Shown here: piece by piece, positions 1-26,022 of the stretch
How positions within the stretch are numbered: the first letter of the stretch is position 1
How the letters are laid out: every line of letters starts with the position of its first letter
From: a virus
Lineage: Duplodnaviria > Heunggongvirae > Uroviricota > Caudoviricetes
Length of the DNA stretch: 28,423 bases
Virus record (IMG/VR): IMGVR_UViG_2537562173_000011
Coordinates: 1-28,423 of that record
Strand: one strand, 5' to 3'
Translations under genes and position numbers: made by a program
Notes under the pieces: model-generated
Seen by the model: the letters and a program-made list of their open reading frames with translations, nothing else
Told to the model about the DNA's origin: nothing
Databases searched by the model: none

Positions 1-1158
1 ATGCTCACCGTTAAGCAGATTGAAGCAGCAAAGCCGAAAGAAAAACCATACCGCCTACTCGATGGTAATGGCCTGTACCTTTATGTCCCTGTATCAGGGA
101 AAAAGGTATGGCAGCTTCGCTACAAGATTGACGGTAAGGAGAAAATCCTGACCGTCGGAAAATATCCACTTATGACTTTGCAGGAGGCAAGAGATAAAGC
201 ATGGACCGCGAGGAAAGACATCTCGGTTGGCATCGATCCGGTAAAAGCGAAAAAGGCTTCGTCTAACAACAATTCCTTTAGTGCGATTTACAAGGAATGG
301 TACGAGCACAAGAAGCAAGTCTGGTCAGTAGGCTATGCAACTGAACTTGCAAAAATGTTTGATGACGACATTTTACCTATCATCGGCGGCCTTGAAATTC
401 AGGATATTGAGCCGATGCAACTGCTGGAAGTAATCCGCAGATTTGAAGATCGCGGTGCAATGGAGCGAGCCAACAAAGCCCGCAGAAGATGCGGCGAGGT
501 TTTCCGTTACGCTATTGTCACTGGTAGGGCTAAATATAACCCGGCACCTGACCTTGCTGACGCCATGAAGGGATACCGCAAGAAGAACTTCCCGTTTCTT
601 CCTGCAGACCAGATCCCTGCATTCAACAAAGCACTGGCAACATTTTCAGGAAGTATCGTATCGCTCATTGCGACCAAAGTTTTACGCTACACAGCCCTAA
701 GAACGAAAGAGCTTCGTTCCATGCTATGGAAGAACGTCGATTTTGAAAACAGGATTATCACCATCGACGCCAGTGTGATGAAGGGACGCAAAATTCATGT
801 GGTCCCGATGTCAGACCAGGTGGTTGAACTTCTCACTACGCTAAGCTCCATCACCAAACCAGTATCAGAGTTTGTTTTTGCCGGGCGCAACGATAAGAAG
901 AAGCCAATCTGCGAGAACGCAGTTCTACTTGTGATCAAACAAATCGGCTATGAGGGTCTAGAAAGCGGTCACGGATTCAGGCATGAATTCAGCACGATTA
1001 TGAACGAGCACGAATGGCCTGCTGACGCTATTGAAGTGCAACTGGCACATGCCAACGGCGGATCTGTGCGCGGTATTTACAACCATGCTCAGTATCTCGA
1101 TAAGCGCAGAGAAATGATGCAGTGGTGGGCGGATTGGCTTGATGAGAAGGTAGAGTGA
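1..1158 (+). CDS. intS: Tyrosine recombinase, P4/IntS-family prophage integrase (385 aa, full length)
   Basis: ATG at position 1; the 385-aa translation matches what I recall of E. coli CPS-53/KplE1 IntS (argW-targeting). The C-terminal catalytic region (HGFRHEF ... HANGGSVRGIYNH) is typical of tyrosine recombinases. Confidence 0.9.
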   Translation: MLTVKQIEAAKPKEKPYRLLDGNGLYLYVPVSGKKVWQLRYKIDGKEKILTVGKYPLMTLQEARDKAWTARKDISVGIDPVKAKKASSNNNSFSAIYKEWYEHKKQVWSVGYATELAKMFDDDILPIIGGLEIQDIEPMQLLEVIRRFEDRGAMERANKARRRCGEVFRYAIVTGRAKYNPAPDLADAMKGYRKKNFPFLPADQIPAFNKALATFSGSIVSLIATKVLRYTALRTKELRSMLWKNVDFENRIITIDASVMKGRKIHVVPMSDQVVELLTTLSSITKPVSEFVFAGRNDKKKPICENAVLLVIKQIGYEGLESGHGFRHEFSTIMNEHEWPADAIEVQLAHANGGSVRGIYNHAQYLDKRREMMQWWADWLDEKVE

Positions 1159-1309
1159 TCCGCCTTAACAACTATCGAAGAGCACAAAGCCTTGTGTGTC
1201 TCATAGGCTATGAAACAATCATTTTACATGGTTACTTCACTACTTCCGCACAATATGATATCGTTCACAATCTAAAAACATTAATAATTTATCCATTACC
1301 GCGGTTAAT

Positions 1310-1336
1310 GCCCGTCGCTTCCAACGGGCTTTTTTG
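1310..1336 (+). terminator. Rho-independent terminator downstream of int
   Basis: Hairpin gcccgt-cgcttcca-acgggc followed by TTTTTT, beginning about 150 bp after the int stop. Confidence 0.5.
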
Positions 1337-1397
1337 TAAATTATATTTTTATTACCTTATATTAATATTGGTAATATGTCTGCATGATGTTTTATAT

Positions 1398-2153
1398 TTA
1401 TTGCGTGAGCTTCGCATGATAGCTGGAGCATCTCTTGTCATCACTAATTAGCTCCGCTTTATCCGTTCTTGCCCATATTATATTTCTTTTTATTATTTTT
1501 GCTGGATTACCGGCTGCTGCACACATAGATGGCACATCTTTAGTTACAATACTCCCATACCCAATGACAGATCCGCTTCCAACAGATACTCCTTTCATTA
1601 TAGAGACATTTCTCCCTACCCATACGTAACTAGATATAATGATATCTTTTGCCCAATTAATCCTTTTTTTGCTATGAATATCAAATATAGGATGCCCATC
1701 TGATGCACGCAAAATAACATCTCTTGCTATCATGCAGTCATGGCCAATTGTAACATTGCACTTATCAGTGACGACTTCAAAACCTGCACCTATTGTCGTT
1801 CTTCTACCGATAATAACTTTTGAACCTTTTGTTGCGACAATATCACCTTTAATCTTACTGTTTTTATGTATTCTTACGTAATTATTATCACCCCTAAATA
1901 TTACGGTAAGCCATCGACACTCAACATCATCTTCTATAATAAGTTTGTTATTGTTTCCATTGAACTGAACTTTATTCTCTTTGCTATTTACAAGATCTCC
2001 ACATACAAAAACATTACCTGACCCATTATCATCAACGGAAAACGAGTCTTGAGTCTTGAGTCTTGAGACTTGAGTCTTGAGGCTTGAGTCTTGAGTCTTG
2101 AGTCTTGAGACTTGAGTCTTGAGGCTTGAGTCTTGAGTCTTGAGTCTTAACAT
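1398..2153 (-). CDS. neuO: Polysialic acid (K1 capsule) O-acetyltransferase, hexapeptide-repeat family, phase-variable
   Basis: 251-aa ORF starting at ATG 2153. N-terminus is built from RLKTQDS-type heptads encoded by AAGACTC repeats; the rest has left-handed beta-helix acetyltransferase character (IGAGFEVV, VGSGSVIGYGSIV). AT-rich, sits between int and tailspike as in CUS-3. Confidence 0.85.
   Translation of the reverse strand: MLRLKTQDSSLKTQVSRLKTQDSSLKTQVSRLKTQDSFSVDDNGSGNVFVCGDLVNSKENKVQFNGNNNKLIIEDDVECRWLTVIFRGDNNYVRIHKNSKIKGDIVATKGSKVIIGRRTTIGAGFEVVTDKCNVTIGHDCMIARDVILRASDGHPIFDIHSKKRINWAKDIIISSYVWVGRNVSIMKGVSVGSGSVIGYGSIVTKDVPSMCAAAGNPAKIIKRNIIWARTDKAELISDDKRCSSYHAKLTQ
2044..2148 (-). 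repeat. Heptanucleotide VNTR, 15 tandem units (coding strand 5'-AAGACTC-3') at the 5' end of neuO
   Basis: Counted directly: 15 contiguous 7-bp units, 11 perfect AAGACTC plus 2 AAGCCTC and 2 AAGTCTC, arranged as a 42-bp super-unit. 15 is a multiple of 3, so the ORF reads through in frame (ON state). Confidence 0.95.
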
Positions 2154-2306
2154 ATTAGTATCCTACGTTATTTTACCACTAGTTACTTTTCTTGTCATTA
2201 AAAAGCATTTAAATTTTTATATTTAATTTCGTTGACGTCAATGTTTTTTGCCAATGTACTTACTTCTTTATGTGATCAGTTCATATTTTTGACGCCAACG
2301 AAACAT

Positions 2307-5252
2307 TTAGTGCTTCCCTTCTATTAAGTCTAACCTAGCTTTTATTCTTTCTATTTCTCTGCGCTGCCATGCTGCCTCGATATAGAATAAGAGATCAGGT
2401 CTGACCCCCCATCTAGATCCTGCTGGCGTTATTTCAACGCGCTCAATGATGTCTTCCATTACCATCACTGGATTATCATCCTCATCAACAATGATGCTCC
2501 CGTCATTATCAGTCAGCGGCATTTCCCTTTGGCCAGTAATGACGTCATCATATACTGCGGGATAATCGTCATAGCAAAGAAAGGCATAGCGGCATGTTGT
2601 GCTTTCTTCTTCCATGAGTCCGTGAGAAATAAGAACATCACGAAGTTGCTGCGCGATTACACCATGATGTATCCTCGCCCCTTCTTCCCCCTTTATAGCG
2701 ACAGCGTTCAGCCATTTATAAGCGATATACCTGACGTCACCCCAGGCATCCAGCAATGTTTCGTCAGGAGAGACCGGCTCTGTCTTTAATGTTCCGTCAC
2801 TGGTAACCACAGGATTGGAGCCAAGATAAACTATCGAGAACCTGTTTCCCGGACCACCAAGAGCATTTACATTATCAAGATAAGGTTTAACATCTCCGTT
2901 CTCAAAAAGATGTTCGAGTGCGTTATATACCGCGCGACGTGGAGTACTGCTTCTGGAACCATGCAACGTTATCATTGCACCATCTGCTGAAGACGTTGTT
3001 TCACCGCCGCTAACGATTAATCTCTGAGCGGTAACATCATCAGACGGTACTTTCTTCGCAATAATGGCGTAATTACCCTCAAGTTTGACTTCCGCGCGAA
3101 CTTGTCCTGATGTACCTGCATGGACAGTCAGTGACTGGACGGCAACATCATCTGTGAAATCAACGGGTACAGGAACCGTCCTCACGCCTGACGTCGACAT
3201 AAAAGTAGGAAGCGTTCTGTTAGGAGTGGCTCCGTAGACAAAATCCCTTGAAACAAATTCTTCCTGTTTAATTTTCACCCTGAAACAATACAAATCAGCC
3301 GGGTGACCATCGTGAACATAAGGATATTTTCTGTTGTTATCCCCTATGCTCCATGGGTTTAGAAAGTCTTCCCCACCGAAAATGTAGTACAGCCAGTTGT
3401 CTTTGATACAAACTGAACCAACACCAACCGCAGAGTTAACTATTCCGCCCTGATAAATCTGATCAGTAACATTAACCCACTCTACATTATCCAGACTCCA
3501 CTCATTGACGTTAACTCTGGTCATAAATGTTCTTGGATAGTTTCCTGCATAACGGTTATCAGGTTCTCCTCCTTCCCACTCACCAAATGCGCGCTCACTG
3601 CCAAAAATAATCAGCTCATCGCCAACTTTGGCAAAAGGAAGGTTTGAGTGATGAACATTATTTGGGAAGCGAAGAGAATTCCATGATGTACCTAAATCAG
3701 AGCTTCTGTGCAATGAACTACCGGGTTGAGTACTTAATGTCCCCCTGGTCGTCAGATACAGAATGCCATCATAATATTTTACACATGGCTCAGATGCATT
3801 CGCCTCATATTCTGCAGGTATGCGTCTGCGAACAAAGCTACCAGGAGAACCGAAAGCATCAGAGAAATAGAGTATCCCAAGCTCGCGTGGACCAATATCA
3901 CCATTATGGTAGCCAACAGCAAAACTGTTATCGCTAATCGTCGCAAAACTGTGAATCTCAGTAACAGGAGTGCTTCCGTCAACAAAAGAAGGAATAGTTC
4001 CAAGACTGGTTTTTCTCCATGGTGACGAGTGAAATGATGTACCAAAACTCCAGTATCTACCCTCGTTATTCTGATCCACATCCTGGGTATTTTGCGTCGT
4101 AACTGTAAAAGTATTTTTATCAATAACAGTAGTCACCGTCATATTCCCGGTAACACCTGTAACACCAGAGTTTGAGAAGTTGACAAAATCACCAGCAAAT
4201 AATCCGTGATCAGTAATGCGAATATAAGCGACTTGCTGATTTGCTGCTTTCGTTATACCACCATAAACGCGAAGGCTGCGACTCATTGGGCGATCCCACA
4301 ACTCTGCAACCTGCAGTTTATTTCCGCTCACGGTCCGCGTCTCAATTACAGCAAAAAGGCGATTTCTGACAACCCCCATACTCATGCAGTGATAGTTAAC
4401 TGTGGGATAGTTTTCATGTAAATCTGTAAGCCATTCCGGCGTTGTCCAGGTCTTCCCGTCATCTCCTGAGCGAACCCATGCAACATGGAGGTTATTTACA
4501 CCATGGCGGTCCCCAGCCATAAAAGGCGCATAGATGACATTGTCATATACAAACGTTTTATCCTGCGTCCAGGCGTTGTACCACGGTGTATCTGTAATTT
4601 TAAATAACTCTCCCTGGATAAAATCTTCAGAAACATAAAAAAGAGGCTGACCCGGTATTCTCTCAAATAAAAAACGAGCATTTTTAAATCGACTGACATC
4701 TGGAAGAGTTGATACTTTAAAAGTAAGCCCTCGCCCATCTATCTTTTCACCACCTGTTGCAACAGAAAGTAATTCTGATAGAGCTGATGTATCATCATGA
4801 ACACCATCACCAATAGCCCCCCAACCTCTTACATCATAACTGTCTCTCCATCTTGCTATCTGAAGTTTTGGGTATTTATTCGCTCCATCTGGGTCTTCTA
4901 ATTGCTGCCGTAGTTGATCAGGATCATACTTCAGCACATTCTGGAAATAGAACTGCTGTACGCCATACGCATCGTACACAGCCATAGAATGGCCTTGCAC
5001 AGTTACGAACTTGGCAATCCGTCCGTTATATACAGGGTAACCAGCAGCGTTAATGATGATTGGTTGCGAAACAGGAACGTGAGAGCCGTCTTCGTTCTCT
5101 ACATAAACCTGAATCCGGTTTTCAGGATTTACCGGGTCAGTGTCAATTTTACCGATATAAATTTTGCCATTGGCTACGGCTTTAAAAGAACGCGCCATAG
5201 TGAAGAGTTGCGAAGGCATCGATACAATCACATTGGCTGTAATGTCTGTCAT
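2307..5252 (-). CDS. Tailspike with P22 gp9-like head-binding N-terminus fused to an endo-N-acetylneuraminidase (endosialidase)
   Basis: 981 aa. N-terminus MTDITANV...[13 protein letters not shown]...VLKYDPDQ is near-identical in pattern to the P22 tailspike head-binding domain; the remainder is consistent with K1-phage endosialidase tailspikes. Position next to ant matches P22 gene 9. Confidence 0.85.
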
Positions 5253-5308
5253 TTAATTTGCTCCAGATGCAAAGAATCGCCGCAGCATGGCCACGGTGAA
5301 TTTTGGGC

Positions 5309-5352: not shown

Positions 5353-6255
5353 TCAGTAATTATGTACTGAAGGAGGTAATTCTTTATTCTTAAGTCTCAT
5401 CCATGCGGAAAGATTCGTTGGTCCGTCTGGCTCATTGATATCAACATCTCGTGTGTGATTGATTAAAACGTCTCTCGCCATATCGATAATACGGGAGAAC
5501 TCATAACCGCAGTCATGACATCTGCCGGAATAGTTCGATTGAATTTGTTTTAGCGCCGGATACAGTTCGCGGAATAATGCCTGTGAGCGGTTGGCATAAT
5601 CCCATAGCCATACAAGGCTGTTTGCTTCTTTTGCAGAAAGCTCGTTGGTTTTCTTCTCTTGTTTGCCGATGAACTCACCTTCAAGCACTACCCTGTGGAT
5701 GTACTCTACTGCTTGTGGTATCTGAGATGCATCAAGCTCTTCAATACTTTCCACATTGAAACGCTGATGAATCATTGCATAAGCTTCTGGGTACATTAGA
5801 TGCTTTTTGCTGACTAGCATATTTACAGCATCACGAAGCGGAGTCCTGTCATCAACAGATGTTTTCTTCCGTGCATTTGCTGCCTCTCCCTTTGTCCAGT
5901 AGTCATGCAGCACAGTAAAGCATTCTTCCTGGTACTGAATCAGTTTATCGCGGATGTCAGCACGAACTTTCTCAGGGTTGATGCTGAACAGCCATCCATT
6001 TAACTTCTTCAAAGGAAGGCAGAGTAGCTTACGAAGCTTACCATCAGCGGCAACCATGTTCATATGAACACAGTTGAATTTGCTAATCTGCTTCATGAGT
6101 TTTGTTTGCTGCGTTGACCAGCTCATTCCGAGGTTTTCAACGATTGGCTTCATCGCAACATATGCAACTCCGGCAGCCATGGCGGTGATAATTTGCTGAC
6201 CGTTGAATGGCACGTAAGAGGTGTTCACTGCTTCTAAAATTGCTATACTATTCAT
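5353..6255 (-). CDS. ant: Antirepressor Ant (immI)
   Basis: Position immediately upstream of the tailspike and downstream of arc, as in P22 immI. I chose ATG 6255 ([10 protein letters not shown]...); the track's longer ORF begins at a GTG at 6321 just after an in-frame stop. Confidence 0.75.
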
Positions 6256-6487
6256 GTTGGTTTTTCTCCACGGATTTACCGACAACCGAAGCCCTGACTG
6301 TTCCAGCAGTTGGGGCTTCACTGTTTTGATTTCTTTGCCGCATCAAGCATCACTTCTGAAAACGTGCGCTTGCCACTGAATACTCTTTCTCTTCTCAATT
6401 TTTCGTTCGTGCCAAATGATTCGCCATGAACAAAATTTGGTCTTAAAATGGTAATCGCAATCTCTTTGACTACTGCATCCAAGCGAA

Positions 6488-6640
6488 TCACACCGTTACC
6501 CCCTCTCTCTTCAGGCTGTCTATCAGGCGCTTGATAACCTCTGAGTTAAACGACCTGCACTCTTCCTTTGCCCTGCTACCGATAGCATCCTTTAACGACT
6601 GCGGCATCCTTACCAAAATCTTACTTATTTCTTTCTCCAT
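6488..6640 (-). CDS. arc: Arc-like ribbon-helix-helix repressor
   Basis: 51 aa from ATG 6640 with a GGAGGG Shine-Dalgarno. Sequence ...RMPQSLKDAIGSRAKEECRSFNSEVIKRLIDSL resembles P22 Arc (GRSVNSEI motif region). Divergent from mnt. Confidence 0.7.
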   Translation of the reverse strand: MEKEISKILVRMPQSLKDAIGSRAKEECRSFNSEVIKRLIDSLKREGVTV

Positions 6641-6754
6641 GTTACCCTCCACGCAAACAACTCTTTTCGAATACAAAAGATAGCAAAGTGAGTATATCTA
6701 GTCAAAATTTTTTTGCATACACTTTGCTATCAAATTGAATACCAAAGGTGTTAT
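6641..6754. promoter_or_regulatory. Divergent immI promoter/operator region between arc and mnt
   Basis: 114-bp AT-rich spacer between divergent RHH repressor genes; contains 12-bp inverted repeats gatagcaaagtg (6679-6690) and cactttgctatc (6720-6731). Confidence 0.4.
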
Positions 6755-7003
6755 ATGGCAAAGGGTGTGTCAATTTCTCCAACTACGGTAAGAATCCCTG
6801 AATCTTTACGCGAGGCTCTTGCTGTCAGAGCATCAAAAAATGGTCGCTCTGTTAACTCCGAGATCGTCATGATTTTGCAAGCCGCGATTGATGAAGATAG
6901 GTCGCCAAAGTCAGTTGAGTCATTTGCTCAGCAAGAAGCTGATAAATTCAAAGAGGCGCTACTTGAGACGCTAAAGACCATGTATGCTAAGGATGAAAAA
7001 TAA
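6755..7003 (+). CDS. mnt: Mnt-like ribbon-helix-helix maintenance repressor
   Basis: 82 aa from ATG 6755 (SD AAGGTG). ...RIPESLREALAVRASKNGRSVNSEIVMILQAA... resembles P22 Mnt; length and divergent orientation relative to arc match P22. Confidence 0.75.
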   Translation: MAKGVSISPTTVRIPESLREALAVRASKNGRSVNSEIVMILQAAIDEDRSPKSVESFAQQEADKFKEALLETLKTMYAKDEK

Positions 7004-7539
7004 TGCTGCACACAATTCATTTCTTATGCCCTGTTAACACTGCCACTGTTGGGCAACTTCAGAACCACTGTCTCACCGCATTATCTCAAGGCGCAACTGA
7101 ATTAAATATCCATATATCAAGTCAGGGAGGGGAAACTGCTGCTGGCTTTACTGCGTATAACTTTCTTAAGTCACTCCCTGTTACCGTTAGAACTCACAAC
7201 ATAAGCAATGTTGAATCCATAGCTAATATCGTTTTCCTGGCTGGCTCAGAACGTTTCGCAAACCCATTATCAAGATTCCTGTTACATCCTCTATTATGGT
7301 GCTTTGCCTCCCCAGCCGCCGACCATGCCAGATTGAGAGAGTACGGGAAATGCCTCGATAACGATCTTGATCGCTTCGTTGAGACGTTCAATATCGACAT
7401 CGGAACCCATATTAGGTGGGCATCCCTGATAGCAGACTCGACCATTTTGGATGCTAACAAGGCTCTTGAGCATGGCATAATTAATTCCATAAAAACTGCA
7501 AGGCTGGCATCCAATCAGGCAAACTGGTGGGTTGTTTGA
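7003..7539 (+). CDS. ClpP-fold (S14-like) serine protease homolog, 178 aa, translationally coupled to mnt
   Basis: Start ATG overlaps the mnt stop (TAATG). HISSQGGETAAGFTAYNFL...ISNVESIANIVFLAGSERF...SRFLLHPLL aligns by eye to the ClpP core (INSPGGVITAG...GQAASMGAFLLTAG...RVMIHQP), with Ser, His and Asp at the catalytic-triad positions. Confidence 0.6.
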   Translation: MLHTIHFLCPVNTATVGQLQNHCLTALSQGATELNIHISSQGGETAAGFTAYNFLKSLPVTVRTHNISNVESIANIVFLAGSERFANPLSRFLLHPLLWCFASPAADHARLREYGKCLDNDLDRFVETFNIDIGTHIRWASLIADSTILDANKALEHGIINSIKTARLASNQANWWVV

Positions 7540-7566
7540 TGGGTAAATCATGATTACTCCTTATAA

Positions 7567-7589
7567 AAAACCCACCTGACGGTGGGTTT
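7567..7589. terminator. Bidirectional rho-independent terminator between convergent hotspot genes
   Basis: aaaaaa-cccacc-tgac-ggtggg-ttt hairpin flanked by A and T runs, between the stop at 7539 (+) and the stop at 7588 (-). Confidence 0.5.
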
Positions 7590-8004
7590 AGTCAAACATA
7601 GTGTTTCTAAAGTCTCTCGCATACCCTGCTAACACTCTCATTCTATTATGATTGTTAGCAGACATGTGAGCTACAGGATGAAAAAGAGCAATCAATGAAT
7701 GCCTGTTCTCATCAAAAAGATTTTGTGCATAAACGAGAGCGGTATTGGATGTTTTATGCCACTGCAACTTTTGCGGTGTGCTGATATCTGTGCCATTTTT
7801 TATTGGCTCAAATTTATTTTCACCAATTGCTAAATGAAGGTGCATAAGGCCTGCATCTTCAATATCAGGAGGTCGATGATAAGAGGTGTCTCTGCCAAAA
7901 TAGCTGGGCAACGTTCCCGTAGACTTGTAGATGATTTTATCATCTACAAGTGTTTGTTTTAAATCAGGAAACTCAACAAAAACCGGGGAGAAAAAAATAG
8001 TCAA
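7588..8004 (-). CDS. Hypothetical protein (138 aa if the TTG start is used), second gene of a two-gene hotspot operon
   Basis: Open frame with AGGA 5 nt upstream of a TTG at 8004; first in-frame ATG would give about 85 aa. No family recognised. AT-rich. Confidence 0.4.
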   Translation of the reverse strand: MTIFFSPVFVEFPDLKQTLVDDKIIYKSTGTLPSYFGRDTSYHRPPDIEDAGLMHLHLAIGENKFEPIKNGTDISTPQKLQWHKTSNTALVYAQNLFDENRHSLIALFHPVAHMSANNHNRMRVLAGYARDFRNTMFD

Positions 8005-8046
8005 AACTATCCTGATTATATTCCACGGTTACTTGCATGTTTTACC

Positions 8047-8613
8047 TCAGTGGAAGTTACCAGAGTGAAACACACGAGTCCCGTGCTCAGCAAGCGCACG
8101 CAAACCAGCCATATCTACGGAACTATCAAAAACAACCGGAACACATGAGCGTTGTTTAATAAGACTATTCAGGTTGGTTACGGCAGATCTGGCATCAGCA
8201 ACAACGATATAGATATCTCTTGCGATCTCTTTAAAATCAGCAGAAGCTTCTTTGAATACCGATTTCATTGCCCCTTCAAGTCCTCTCAATTGATGCTCTA
8301 TCAATCGAGACTTTTCTGGTTCAATGATAGACAACACATTGTCTACATTCTCATCGGTAGCGTTTGCAAGAACACGATAAGCGTATTTCAGCATTCGAGA
8401 CAATTCTTTAATCGAAGACACCGCCTCATGAAGCTCATCATTAGCCCGTTCACTGCTGAATGAGGATTGATGGTAAGCGTGCTGAACGTTATCAGTAACA
8501 ACCACCTCACAACTGAACGCAGAAGCTTGCTGTAATAGCAAACCTATTGCGACTCCAGCTTTGGCAGCGTTCAAGCTAAACATTTCATCAATCCCATTAG
8601 TCTCATTGCTCAT
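8047..8613 (-). CDS. Hypothetical protein (188 aa), first gene of a two-gene hotspot operon
   Basis: ATG at 8613 preceded by a perfect AAGGAGG Shine-Dalgarno; predicted largely helical; no family recognised. Confidence 0.5.
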   Translation of the reverse strand: MSNETNGIDEMFSLNAAKAGVAIGLLLQQASAFSCEVVVTDNVQHAYHQSSFSSERANDELHEAVSSIKELSRMLKYAYRVLANATDENVDNVLSIIEPEKSRLIEHQLRGLEGAMKSVFKEASADFKEIARDIYIVVADARSAVTNLNSLIKQRSCVPVVFDSSVDMAGLRALAEHGTRVFHSGNFH

Positions 8614-8788
8614 ACAAACCTCCTTCTTATCGGAGATTATCAATAGCTATGCATCCATTGAATACACGCTATGCGCAATAAGTTTACGTCACGTGATATC
8701 ATTATGCAACCACCGTTCTATCACCGACTAACTTTACTCCCACTCCTATACATCATCTGGTATCCTGCGCAAAACTAAGGAGGTTGGT

Positions 8789-24373: not shown

Positions 24374-24846
24374 ACCTCAATCTCTCTGCCCGTCCCGCCA
24401 GCCTCTTTGAATTTTGCAATCAGGTTGTCAGCCTTATGCTCGAACTGACCATAACCAGCGCCCGGCAGTGAAGCCCAGATATTGCTGCAACGGTCGATTG
24501 CCTGACGAATATCACCGCGGTCAATCATCGGTAAAGCGCCACGCTCTTTAATCTGCTGCAATGCCACAGCGTCCTGACTTTTCGGAGAGAAGTCTTTCAG
24601 ACCAAGCTGCTTACGGTAGGCATCCCACCAACGGGAAAGAAGCTGGTAGCGTCCGGCGGCTGTTGATTTGAGTTTTGGGTTTAGCGTGACAAGCTTGCGA
24701 GGGTGATCGGAGTAATCAGTAAATAGCTCTCCGCCTACAATGACGTCATAACCATGATTTCTGGTTTTCTGCCGTCCGTTATCAGTTCCCTCTGACCACG
24801 CCAGCATATCGAGGAACGCCTTACGTTGATTATTGATTTCCACCAT
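24370..24846 (-). CDS. R: Endolysin, lambda R-type lytic transglycosylase
   Basis: 158 aa, [53 protein letters not shown]... is near-identical to lambda R as recalled. Confidence 0.9.
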
Positions 24847-25082
24847 CTTCTACTCCGGCTTTTTTAGCAGCGAAGCGTTTGATAAGCGAACCAATCGAGT
24901 CAGTACCGATGTAGCCGATGAACACGCTCGTTATATAAGCGAGATTGCTACTTAGTCCGGCGAAGTCGAGAAGGTCACGAATGAACCAGGCGATAATGGC
25001 GCACATCGTTGCGTCGATTACTGTTTTTGTAAACGCACCGCCATTATATCTGCCGCGAAGGTACGCCATTGCAAACGCAAGG
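24830..25082 (-). pseudogene. S: Holin S (lambda type), lacking its native N-terminus and start codons
   Basis: From ...[45 protein letters not shown]... to the C-terminus the translation matches lambda S, but the first ~24 codons ([24 protein letters not shown]) are replaced by the foldback/homopolymer junction. Confidence 0.8.
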
Positions 25083-25139
25083 CATCGGGGCAATCCTTGC
25101 GTTTGCAATGGCGTACCTTCGCGGCAGATATAATGGCGG
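25038..25139. repeat. Perfect 45-bp inverted repeat (foldback) with 12-bp spacer
   Basis: Left arm 25038-25082 is the exact reverse complement of right arm 25095-25139; both are holin S codons ~22-40, once in each orientation. The plus-strand copy plus spacer reads [21 protein letters not shown]. Confidence 0.95.
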
Positions 25140-25167
25140 GGGGGGTGTAAAAAAAAAAAAAAAAAAA
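25138..25167. repeat. Homopolymer tract G8-TGT-A19
   Basis: Read directly: gggggggg tgt aaaaaaaaaaaaaaaaaaa, between the foldback repeat and the argE-derived sequence. Confidence 0.95.
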
Positions 25168-25170
25168 TCC

Positions 25171-26022
25171 CCGCCATTTATCGAGATTTACCGTGCTCTG
25201 ATTGCCACACCTTCAATAAGCGCCACGGAAGAGGCACTCGATCAAAGCAATGCAGATTTAATCACTCTGCTGGCGGACTGGTTTAAGGATTTAGGCTTCA
25301 ATGTGGAAGTACAGCCTGTGCCAGGAACTCGCAACAAATTTAATATGCTGGCCAGTTGCGGACAGGGGGCTGGCGGTTTGTTGCTGGCGGGGCATACCGA
25401 TACGGTGCCATTTGATGACGGACGCTGGACGCGCGATCCATTTACGTTGACGGAGCATGACGGCAAGCTTTACGGCTTAGGCACCGCCGACATGAAAGGC
25501 TTTTTTGCGTTTATCCTTGATGCGCTACGCGATGTCGACGTCACGAAGCTTGCAAAACCGCTCTACATTCTGGCGACTGCCGATGAAGAAACCAGTATGG
25601 CCGGAGCGCGTTATTTTGCCGAAACTACCGCCCTGCGCCCGGATTGCGCCATCATTGGCGAGCCAACGTCGCTGCAACCGGTACGCGCGCATAAAGGTCA
25701 TATCTCTAACGCCATCCGTATTCAGGGCCAGTCGGGCCACTCCAGCGATCCAGCACGCGGAGTTAACGCTATCGAACTGATGCACGACGCCATCGGGCAT
25801 ATTTTGCAATTGCGCGATAACCTGAAAGAACGTTATCACTACGACGCGTTTACCGTGCCATACCCTACGCTCAACCTCGGGCATATCCACGGCGGCGATG
25901 CATCTAACCGTATTTGCGCTTGTTGTGAGTTGCATATGGATATTCGTCCGCTGCCAGGCATGACACTCAATGAACTTAACGGTTTGCTCAACGATGCATT
26001 GGCTCCAGTGAGCGAACGCTGG
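25171..26022 (+). pseudogene. argE: Internal fragment of acetylornithine deacetylase gene argE (about codons 6-289), no start codon, truncated 3' end
   Basis: Translation [62 protein letters not shown]...SERW matches E. coli ArgE as recalled; homology is lost after SERW, followed by VGL-stop. Confidence 0.85.

Follow-up and report, generated by a model that had tools for sequence, protein, structure and literature searches.

The heptanucleotide array at the 5′ end of neuO in the virus record IMGVR_UViG_2537562173_000011 is best explained as the known neuO VNTR in an interrupted ON allele, in which one-unit switching would be damped. We give this reading as a whole a probability of about 60%. 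That the tract is the neuO VNTR is, judging from its sequence, very nearly certain, and the on/off repeat switch of neuO is already known. The interrupted, 42-bp-periodic form is probably a rare and modest natural oddity on top of this known switch, one that switches less readily. All positions refer to the window, i.e., the whole stretch of 28,423 nt that was analyzed.

The neuO locus and its repeat tract

The features of the locus are:

1–1158, plus strand: prophage integrase (IntS/CUS-3 int, tyrosine integrase), the downstream neighbor of neuO (Pfam Phage_integrase, 4.9e-39); the gene call on the source contig begins before the window
1398–2153, minus strand: neuO ORF, 251 aa, five N-terminal heptads and a left-handed beta-helix O-acetyltransferase body (ORF list, Pfam Hexapep, 3JQY)
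2044–2148, minus strand: neuO poly-psi VNTR, 15 units, aaaCaTaaaCaTaaa (TRF, unit parsing, self-match, pattern count)
2107–2148, minus strand: first 42-bp block, units 1–6, aaaCaT, with variants at 2124 (A>C, Arg>Ser) and 2110 (A>T, Asp>Val) (unit parsing, alignment to AH21I008)
2065–2106, minus strand: second 42-bp block, units 7–12, identical to the first, with variants at 2082 and 2068 (unit parsing, alignment, self-match)
2044–2064, minus strand: terminal half block, units 13–15, three canonical units adjoining the unique neuO body (unit parsing)
2149–2153, minus strand: ATG plus two bases (ATGTT); the array starts two nucleotides past the start codon, as published (PMC3046976)
2154–2306, minus strand: intergenic region upstream of neuO (promoter side), with no mismatch to strain AH21I008 (alignment)
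2161–2164, minus strand: AGGA, a Shine-Dalgarno-like motif 7 nt upstream of the ATG (read from the sequence; putative function)
2307–5252, minus strand: endosialidase tailspike (siaK1-type), the upstream neighbor of neuO (Pfam End_beta_propel, 1.2e-233, Head_binding and Peptidase_S74; CUS-3 annotation)

Tandem Repeats Finder (TRF) reported a single strong array, located at 2044–2148, with a period of 7, 15.0 copies, 91% matches, zero indels and a score of 182. The unit reads GAGTCTT on the plus strand and AAGACTC on the coding (minus) strand, where the ATGTT of neuO is followed by 15 heptanucleotide units in the order aaaCaTaaaCaTaaa (a = AAGACTC, C = AAGCCTC, T = AAGTCTC). Eleven of the units are AAGACTC, two are AAGCCTC (units 4 and 10) and two are AAGTCTC (units 6 and 12). 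The 15 AAGACTC-type repeats described in the initial annotation are thus borne out by TRF and unit parsing, with the gene on the minus strand. The same holds for the mixed tract and its 42-bp period, for which unit parsing is joined by an exact self-match: at an offset of 42 bp the tract matches itself over 63 nt with 0 mismatches, and the exact periodicity corresponds to 2.5 copies of a six-unit block. Every substitution is found at position 4 of its unit (2068, 2082, 2110, and 2124 on the plus strand). The longest pure run is 3 units, and three such runs are present. The pattern AAGNCTC x3 has 13 matches in the window, all of them inside the tract, and 0 in 100 dinucleotide-preserving shuffles.

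The ORF at 1398–2153 is assigned by its sequence to the hexapeptide-repeat (left-handed beta-helix) acyltransferases. The Hexapep domain (PF00132) was detected by Pfam with 41.4 bits against a cut-off of 27 (E 9.4e-11), and residues 11–251 align with the NeuO crystal structure 3JQY (E = 4.9e-157), the body being identical and the differences confined to the four heptad substitutions. NeuO is the polysialic-acid O-acetyltransferase encoded by CUS-3, and it modifies the K1 capsule of E. coli. NeuO is the polysialic-acid O-acetyltransferase that CUS-3 encodes and that modifies the K1 capsule of E. coli. The gene had been called neuO from the start; acetyltransferase homology, the absence of which had been named beforehand as a possible refutation, is present in both the domain and the alignment. 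Further structure matches were OatWY and the galactoside and maltose O-acetyltransferases. OatWY of Neisseria meningitidis W-135/Y (PDB 2WLC family), a left-handed beta-helix sialate O-acetyltransferase, is the closest solved homolog after NeuO (E = 1.1e-30) and aligns to the NeuO body alone (query residues 60–243) and to none of the heptad region. OatWY is not known to be switched by a repeat of this kind.

The five heptads of the ORF are, in order, RLKTQDS, SLKTQVS, RLKTQDS, SLKTQVS, and RLKTQDS, and both changes in the variant heptads (Arg>Ser and Asp>Val) are non-synonymous. The poly-psi domain is disordered in the crystal and has been proposed to widen the polysialic-acid binding surface via its Arg and Lys residues (PMC3046976). 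A triple coiled-coil, as might be suggested by the Leu/Val spacing, was rejected, as it is ruled out by the crystal structure (PMC3046976).

Each RLKTQDS heptad is encoded by three units (PMC3046976, PMC13001214, PMC8653822), and isolates carry between 2 and 93 repeat copies (PMC3046976). Full-length NeuO is made only at unit numbers that are multiples of three; this published poly-psi VNTR rule is the established on/off mechanism that the initial annotation had ascribed to CUS-3 neuO (PMC3046976, PMC13001214). In silico, 15 units leave the ORF open over its full 251 aa, while arrays of 13, 14, 16, or 17 units run into a stop after 35–59 codons. The annotated genomes fetched from RefSeq behave in the same way: arrays of 9, 12, 15, 21, and 39 units have a full-length annotated CDS, and at unit numbers not divisible by three only a 111-aa C-terminal fragment is annotated. 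The allele as assembled, with 15 units, is ON and has five heptads. The in-frame state read earlier from the sequence is thereby upheld, as simulated changes of ±1 and ±2 units truncate the ORF.

The setting is that of the known neuO locus, a P22-like prophage at argW in which the gene is flanked by int and the endosialidase tailspike. The order int-neuO-tailspike is the one found in prophage CUS-3 (GenBank CP000711), in agreement with the CUS-3 carriage proposed for this gene. As in AH21I008, which has a tRNA-Arg ahead of intS, the source contig runs on into yfdC and mlaA. A tRNA search of the window found none; the tRNA of the argW site lies outside it.

The window allele and the neuO VNTR of CUS-3 RS218 (Deszo 2005, King 2007; CP000711) have the enzyme body, the AAGACTC unit, the post-ATG site, the neighboring genes and the multiple-of-three rule in common. 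They differ in the array itself. The RS218 tract consists of 19 pure units, is OFF and is annotated as "poly(psi) domain," whereas the tract in the window has 15 units, is ON and carries four variants, all at position 4, within a higher-order repeat of 42 bp.

Other neuO arrays and the reliability of the assembly

The neuO locus was found in 178 of 5426 complete E. coli genomes, the best matches being 99.6% identical. Another 28 neuO arrays were read at single-base level: 10 came from contigs in IMG/VR, and the other 18 from complete genomes or the CUS-3 record. They range from 8 to 53 units and are all pure, giving 0/611 variant units as compared to 4/15 in the window (Fisher p = 2e-7). With a purity run of 3 units vs. 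8–53 in these comparators, the tract in the window is an interrupted repeat. The ST95-32 and AH21I008 arrays are pure and have 15 units, equal in length to the tract in the window. Positions 1–5300 differ from AH21I008 at 6 positions, and 4 of these are the variant bases of the tract.

A broader survey of the 5′ side was made in 158 genomes with BLAST probes consisting of the flank and eight pure units. The first 8 units were pure in 153 of them (94 with the ATGTT flank and 59 with ATGTC). Two of the five genomes with non-exact matches were read and turned out to be TAAC flank variants, both pure; the remaining ones look like either additional flank variants or arrays of very few units among the matches listed. 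The corresponding survey from the 3′ flank reached ∼107 genomes, as other flank variants gave no seed. Here, exact matches were obtained in 95/100 and 6/12 genomes, and the three non-exact records that were read were all pure. In the BLAST results, mismatches to the eight units at either end of other arrays had hinted at interruptions, but these were flank SNPs (ATGTT>ATGTC, TAAT>TAAC, or a downstream G>A) in every case read. The base before the array also splits the neuO alleles into two groups, with ATGTT (MLRLK...) in 94 complete genomes and ATGTC (MSRLK...) in 59, and a few alleles have TAAC for TAAT before the ATG.

The exact 251-aa protein (WP_000944992.1/EHG00335.1) is found on one contig only among ∼15 billion proteins. 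The 21-mer AAGCCTCAAGACTCAAGTCTC, which spans C-a-T, has 0 matches in IMG/VR, and its 9 metagenome and 4 GTDB matches all fall in unrelated contigs that are rich in GC, have mixed AAGNCTC heptamers and lack a neuO flank. The interrupted allele is a singleton among the sequences surveyed.

Three further observations concern heptanucleotide arrays elsewhere. A NeuO homolog in IMGVR_UViG_3300011706_000037 (1–3042) is 85% identical, has a GTG start (VAQDVDKSFTIQDQGTGNSF...) and lacks a heptanucleotide array. The VNTR seems to be confined to the CUS-3 lineage of neuO. In IMGVR_UViG_3300007747_000060 (∼1095–1199) a 13-unit array directly follows ...AACGTAGGA, and the 12 nt TACTAATATGTT, and with them the start codon, are absent, owing either to a deletion or to faulty assembly of the metagenome. 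Unrelated environmental metagenome contigs (∼940–1040, ∼60–200, and ∼6040–6180) carry mixed AAGCCTC/AAGTCTC/AAGACTC arrays without neuO context.

The NeuO protein sits on contig AEYT01000031.1 of E. coli "cloneA_i1," to which the window is identical over the overlap. Clone A i1 is a urine isolate from a woman with acute cystitis and is a kps-positive ST95 strain near APEC O1; its sequence is a 2011 paired-end Illumina GAIIx draft in 79 contigs (PMC3203180). The capsule locus lies outside the window. The window also contains a foldback at 25083, where the next ∼57 nt (25083–25139) are the reverse complement of the sequence flanking the break. The inverted match extends over 62 nt in full (window 25078–25139 = CUS-3 25229–25168) and leads into G8-TGT-A19, after which the continuation differs from that in CUS-3. 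The holin gene (ORF 24830–25177, minus strand) has had its 5′ end replaced in this way. The foldback, with an artefact span of 25083–25170, is almost certainly a product of the draft assembly. Since the sequence comes from a short-read draft of 2011 that is visibly misassembled at another place in the window, the variant bases and the number of units are both provisional.

The tract itself might be an assembly or sequencing artefact as well. The real tract would then be an ordinary AAGACTC array, either fully pure or with one variant island and longer pure runs, through which the assembler or gap-closer had threaded error-bearing or looped k-mers, producing the variants, the 42-bp period and an arbitrary unit count. 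Both the nature of the draft and the foldback chimera with its G8-TGT-A19 point in this direction, and so does the absence of the variants from every other sequence in the genomes, IMG/VR, metagenomes, GTDB, and protein collection searched. A>C changes are, moreover, a common type of miscall on the Illumina GAIIx. Errors seldom reach an assembly consensus, however, and the C and T variants, being 14 nt apart, must share k-mers or reads and yet appear twice in perfect register.

The behavior of short-read assemblers at such repeats can be read both ways. Pure arrays usually break short-read contigs, and many cluster members are "partial" and start inside the array. The pure stretches between the variant bases, or between a variant base and the flank, measure 24–27 nt, which is the minimum for a k = 18–24 graph; they are the output expected of a de Bruijn graph with k of ∼18–24 that collapses longer pure runs, and unit number and phase could then differ. 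On the other hand, a tract anchored by variant bases can be crossed by a short-read assembler, while a pure 105-bp tract cannot, and the flanks, with the promoter region, show no difference from those of other ST95 strains, only 2 other differences occurring in 5.3 kb. We regard an artefact as rather unlikely, and the variant units as probably real. Our confidence in the exact count of 15 units is somewhat lower. Counting the 42-bp loop requires reads of at least 65 nt, and k-mers of up to 63 nt recur within the tract. A wrong block count would leave the frame unaffected, whereas collapsed pure runs would affect it.

Origin of the pattern and predicted switching

Two substitutions followed by a six-unit duplication are the simplest and most likely origin of the pattern. 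An A>C and an A>T change may have arisen two units apart in a short array, and one 42-bp (six-unit) duplication through misalignment would then have copied both. This is favored because all four variants are at position 4 and the 42-bp repeat is exact, and four independent hits would be very unlikely. The six-unit block duplication claimed in the initial annotation is accordingly the most economical reading of the exact periodicity. Ten hypothetical relatives (9-, 12-, 15-, 18-, 21-, and 27-unit block variants and single-substitution ancestors) were looked up in the ∼15-billion-protein collection, and no exact match was found; the absence from this collection of 9-, 12-, 18-, 21-, or 27-unit relatives and of single-substitution intermediates counts against our best explanation.

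Translation from the ATG (2153–2151, minus strand) enters the array two bases on, with multiples of three units reaching the enzyme body and every three units adding one N-terminal heptad. The interruptions change the registers in which such an array can misalign. At a one-unit offset the longest exact self-match is 20 nt, as compared to 98 nt in a pure 15-unit tract, and misalignment of the whole tract by one unit meets 8 mismatches in 98 nt. On/off switching should be damped by this loss of perfect one-unit pairing, from 98 nt down to 20 nt; if the variant units are real, we consider such damping fairly likely. One-unit slippage would pair perfectly over at most 20 nt, and ON/OFF frame shifts would be expected to be much rarer than in a pure tract.

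Only a misalignment of ±42 bp would pair without mismatch, in which case the frame is kept and the protein gains or loses 2 heptads. As 42 bp are 14 codons, gain or loss of a block leaves the phase unchanged, and block slippage therefore gives no on/off switching. Slippage in larger steps, as proposed in the initial annotation, would alter the heptad number but never the phase. The allele would act as an ON-biased, quasi-locked switch with at most a stepwise tuning of activity.

Background on slippage agrees with this prediction. Repeat number and purity are its cis determinants (PMC4085013), and in the polyG tracts of C. jejuni engineered interruption or recoding abolishes detectable switching (PMC8437040). 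As in the window allele, the interruptions in locked C. jejuni polyG shorten the longest pure run, the principal cis determinant of slippage; there, however, the rates are measured and the units are of the 1–3 bp class, whereas the effect in the window allele is predicted, the unit is 7 bp and block duplication adds an extra in-frame register (PMC8437040). Laboratory locking of neuO has likewise been achieved by recoding of the repeat (Schulz 2011, PMC3046976; J Bacteriol 2026, PMC13001214). Engineered and window alleles both keep the heptad extension in frame and have the nucleotide repeat broken up. The engineered neuO is fully recoded, with RLKTQDS kept and no DNA repeat left, while the window allele is natural and only partly interrupted, has two SLKTQVS heptads and retains a 42-bp repeat.

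Interrupted repeats that stabilize their tracts are also represented by the variant repeats of yeast and the AGG interruptions of FMR1, cases in which, too, the units are of 1–3 bp and the rates are measured. At contingency loci, De Bolle in 2000 and Petes in 1997 are said to have found that slippage drops steeply with fewer and less pure units.

The allele might instead be real and functionally ordinary, with neutral substitutions and single-unit slips in the three-unit runs at a relevant rate, which was the implicit view of the initial annotation. Three pure three-unit runs do remain, each with a 20-nt exact one-unit self-match, and some one-unit slippage can still take place within them, a point that also weighs against damping. 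Single-unit changes are the commonest at neuO according to PMC3046976 (citing King 2007), and in a 21-unit strain the −1 form made up 1.9% and the +1 form 5.4% (PMC13001214). Short arrays exist, too, with 3 units in complete genomes (PMC13001214) and 8 units in arrays read here. Nevertheless, every one-unit misalignment reaching past a pure run runs into mismatches, slippage at contingency loci declines steeply as uninterrupted units become fewer and less pure (PMC4085013), and the loss of detectable switching upon interruption of the C. jejuni tracts argues in the same direction. We find an ordinary allele unlikely.

A selective effect on the protein, with the effect on slippage being incidental, seems to us very improbable. 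SLKTQVS would in that case have been selected for altering the function of the poly-psi extension, for instance polysialic-acid binding or self-association. Both changes are indeed non-synonymous, NeuO activity scales with the number of heptads, and heptad residues Arg1 and Lys3 have been proposed to contact polysialic acid (PMC3046976); furthermore, the Val is placed four residues past the Leu, which might give an a/d-like hydrophobic spacing. The variant heptads have not spread, however, and the allele has been seen once.

Going one step beyond damped switching, the allele might be a naturally arisen, ON-stabilized neuO in an ST95 cystitis isolate, in which two point interruptions and a six-unit duplication have turned the binary switch into a mostly fixed ON state with ±42 bp changes tuning activity only. 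We put this forward tentatively and would not insist on it; it would be a concrete case of a contingency locus decaying or being locked in nature. Whether the K1 capsule is O-acetylated by NeuO bears on resistance to phages, on killing by neutrophils and serum, and on recognition by Siglecs (PMC13001214, PMC8653822, PMC9659370). If the interrupted allele is real, it would provide a natural experiment on how repeat purity acts at a contingency locus with a 7-bp unit, and it would mean that a uropathogenic ST95 lineage can fix O-acetylation ON. The unit count modulo three, as used in genome surveys, would then miss switching potential. If the tract is an artefact, it would serve as a warning against phase states read from short-read drafts.

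The remainder of the prophage

Farther along the window, the prophage is a mosaic relative to CUS-3 RS218 and ST95 strain AH21I008 (5686–12224 and 12225–15278). The part from 5.7 to 12.2 kb, which encodes an antirepressor, a ClpP-like ORF (7003–7539) and ejection proteins, is mostly unmatched in CUS-3 RS218 except for one 243-nt stretch, and the match to AH21I008 extends to ∼8.8 kb. The 3 kb after this region (12225–15278) are only 92% identical. They contain a 21-bp tandem duplication at 12811–12852 (2.0 copies, 86% matches), which overlaps a 230-aa ORF at 12249–12941 (minus strand), and several more two-copy short repeats were reported in the window by TRF.
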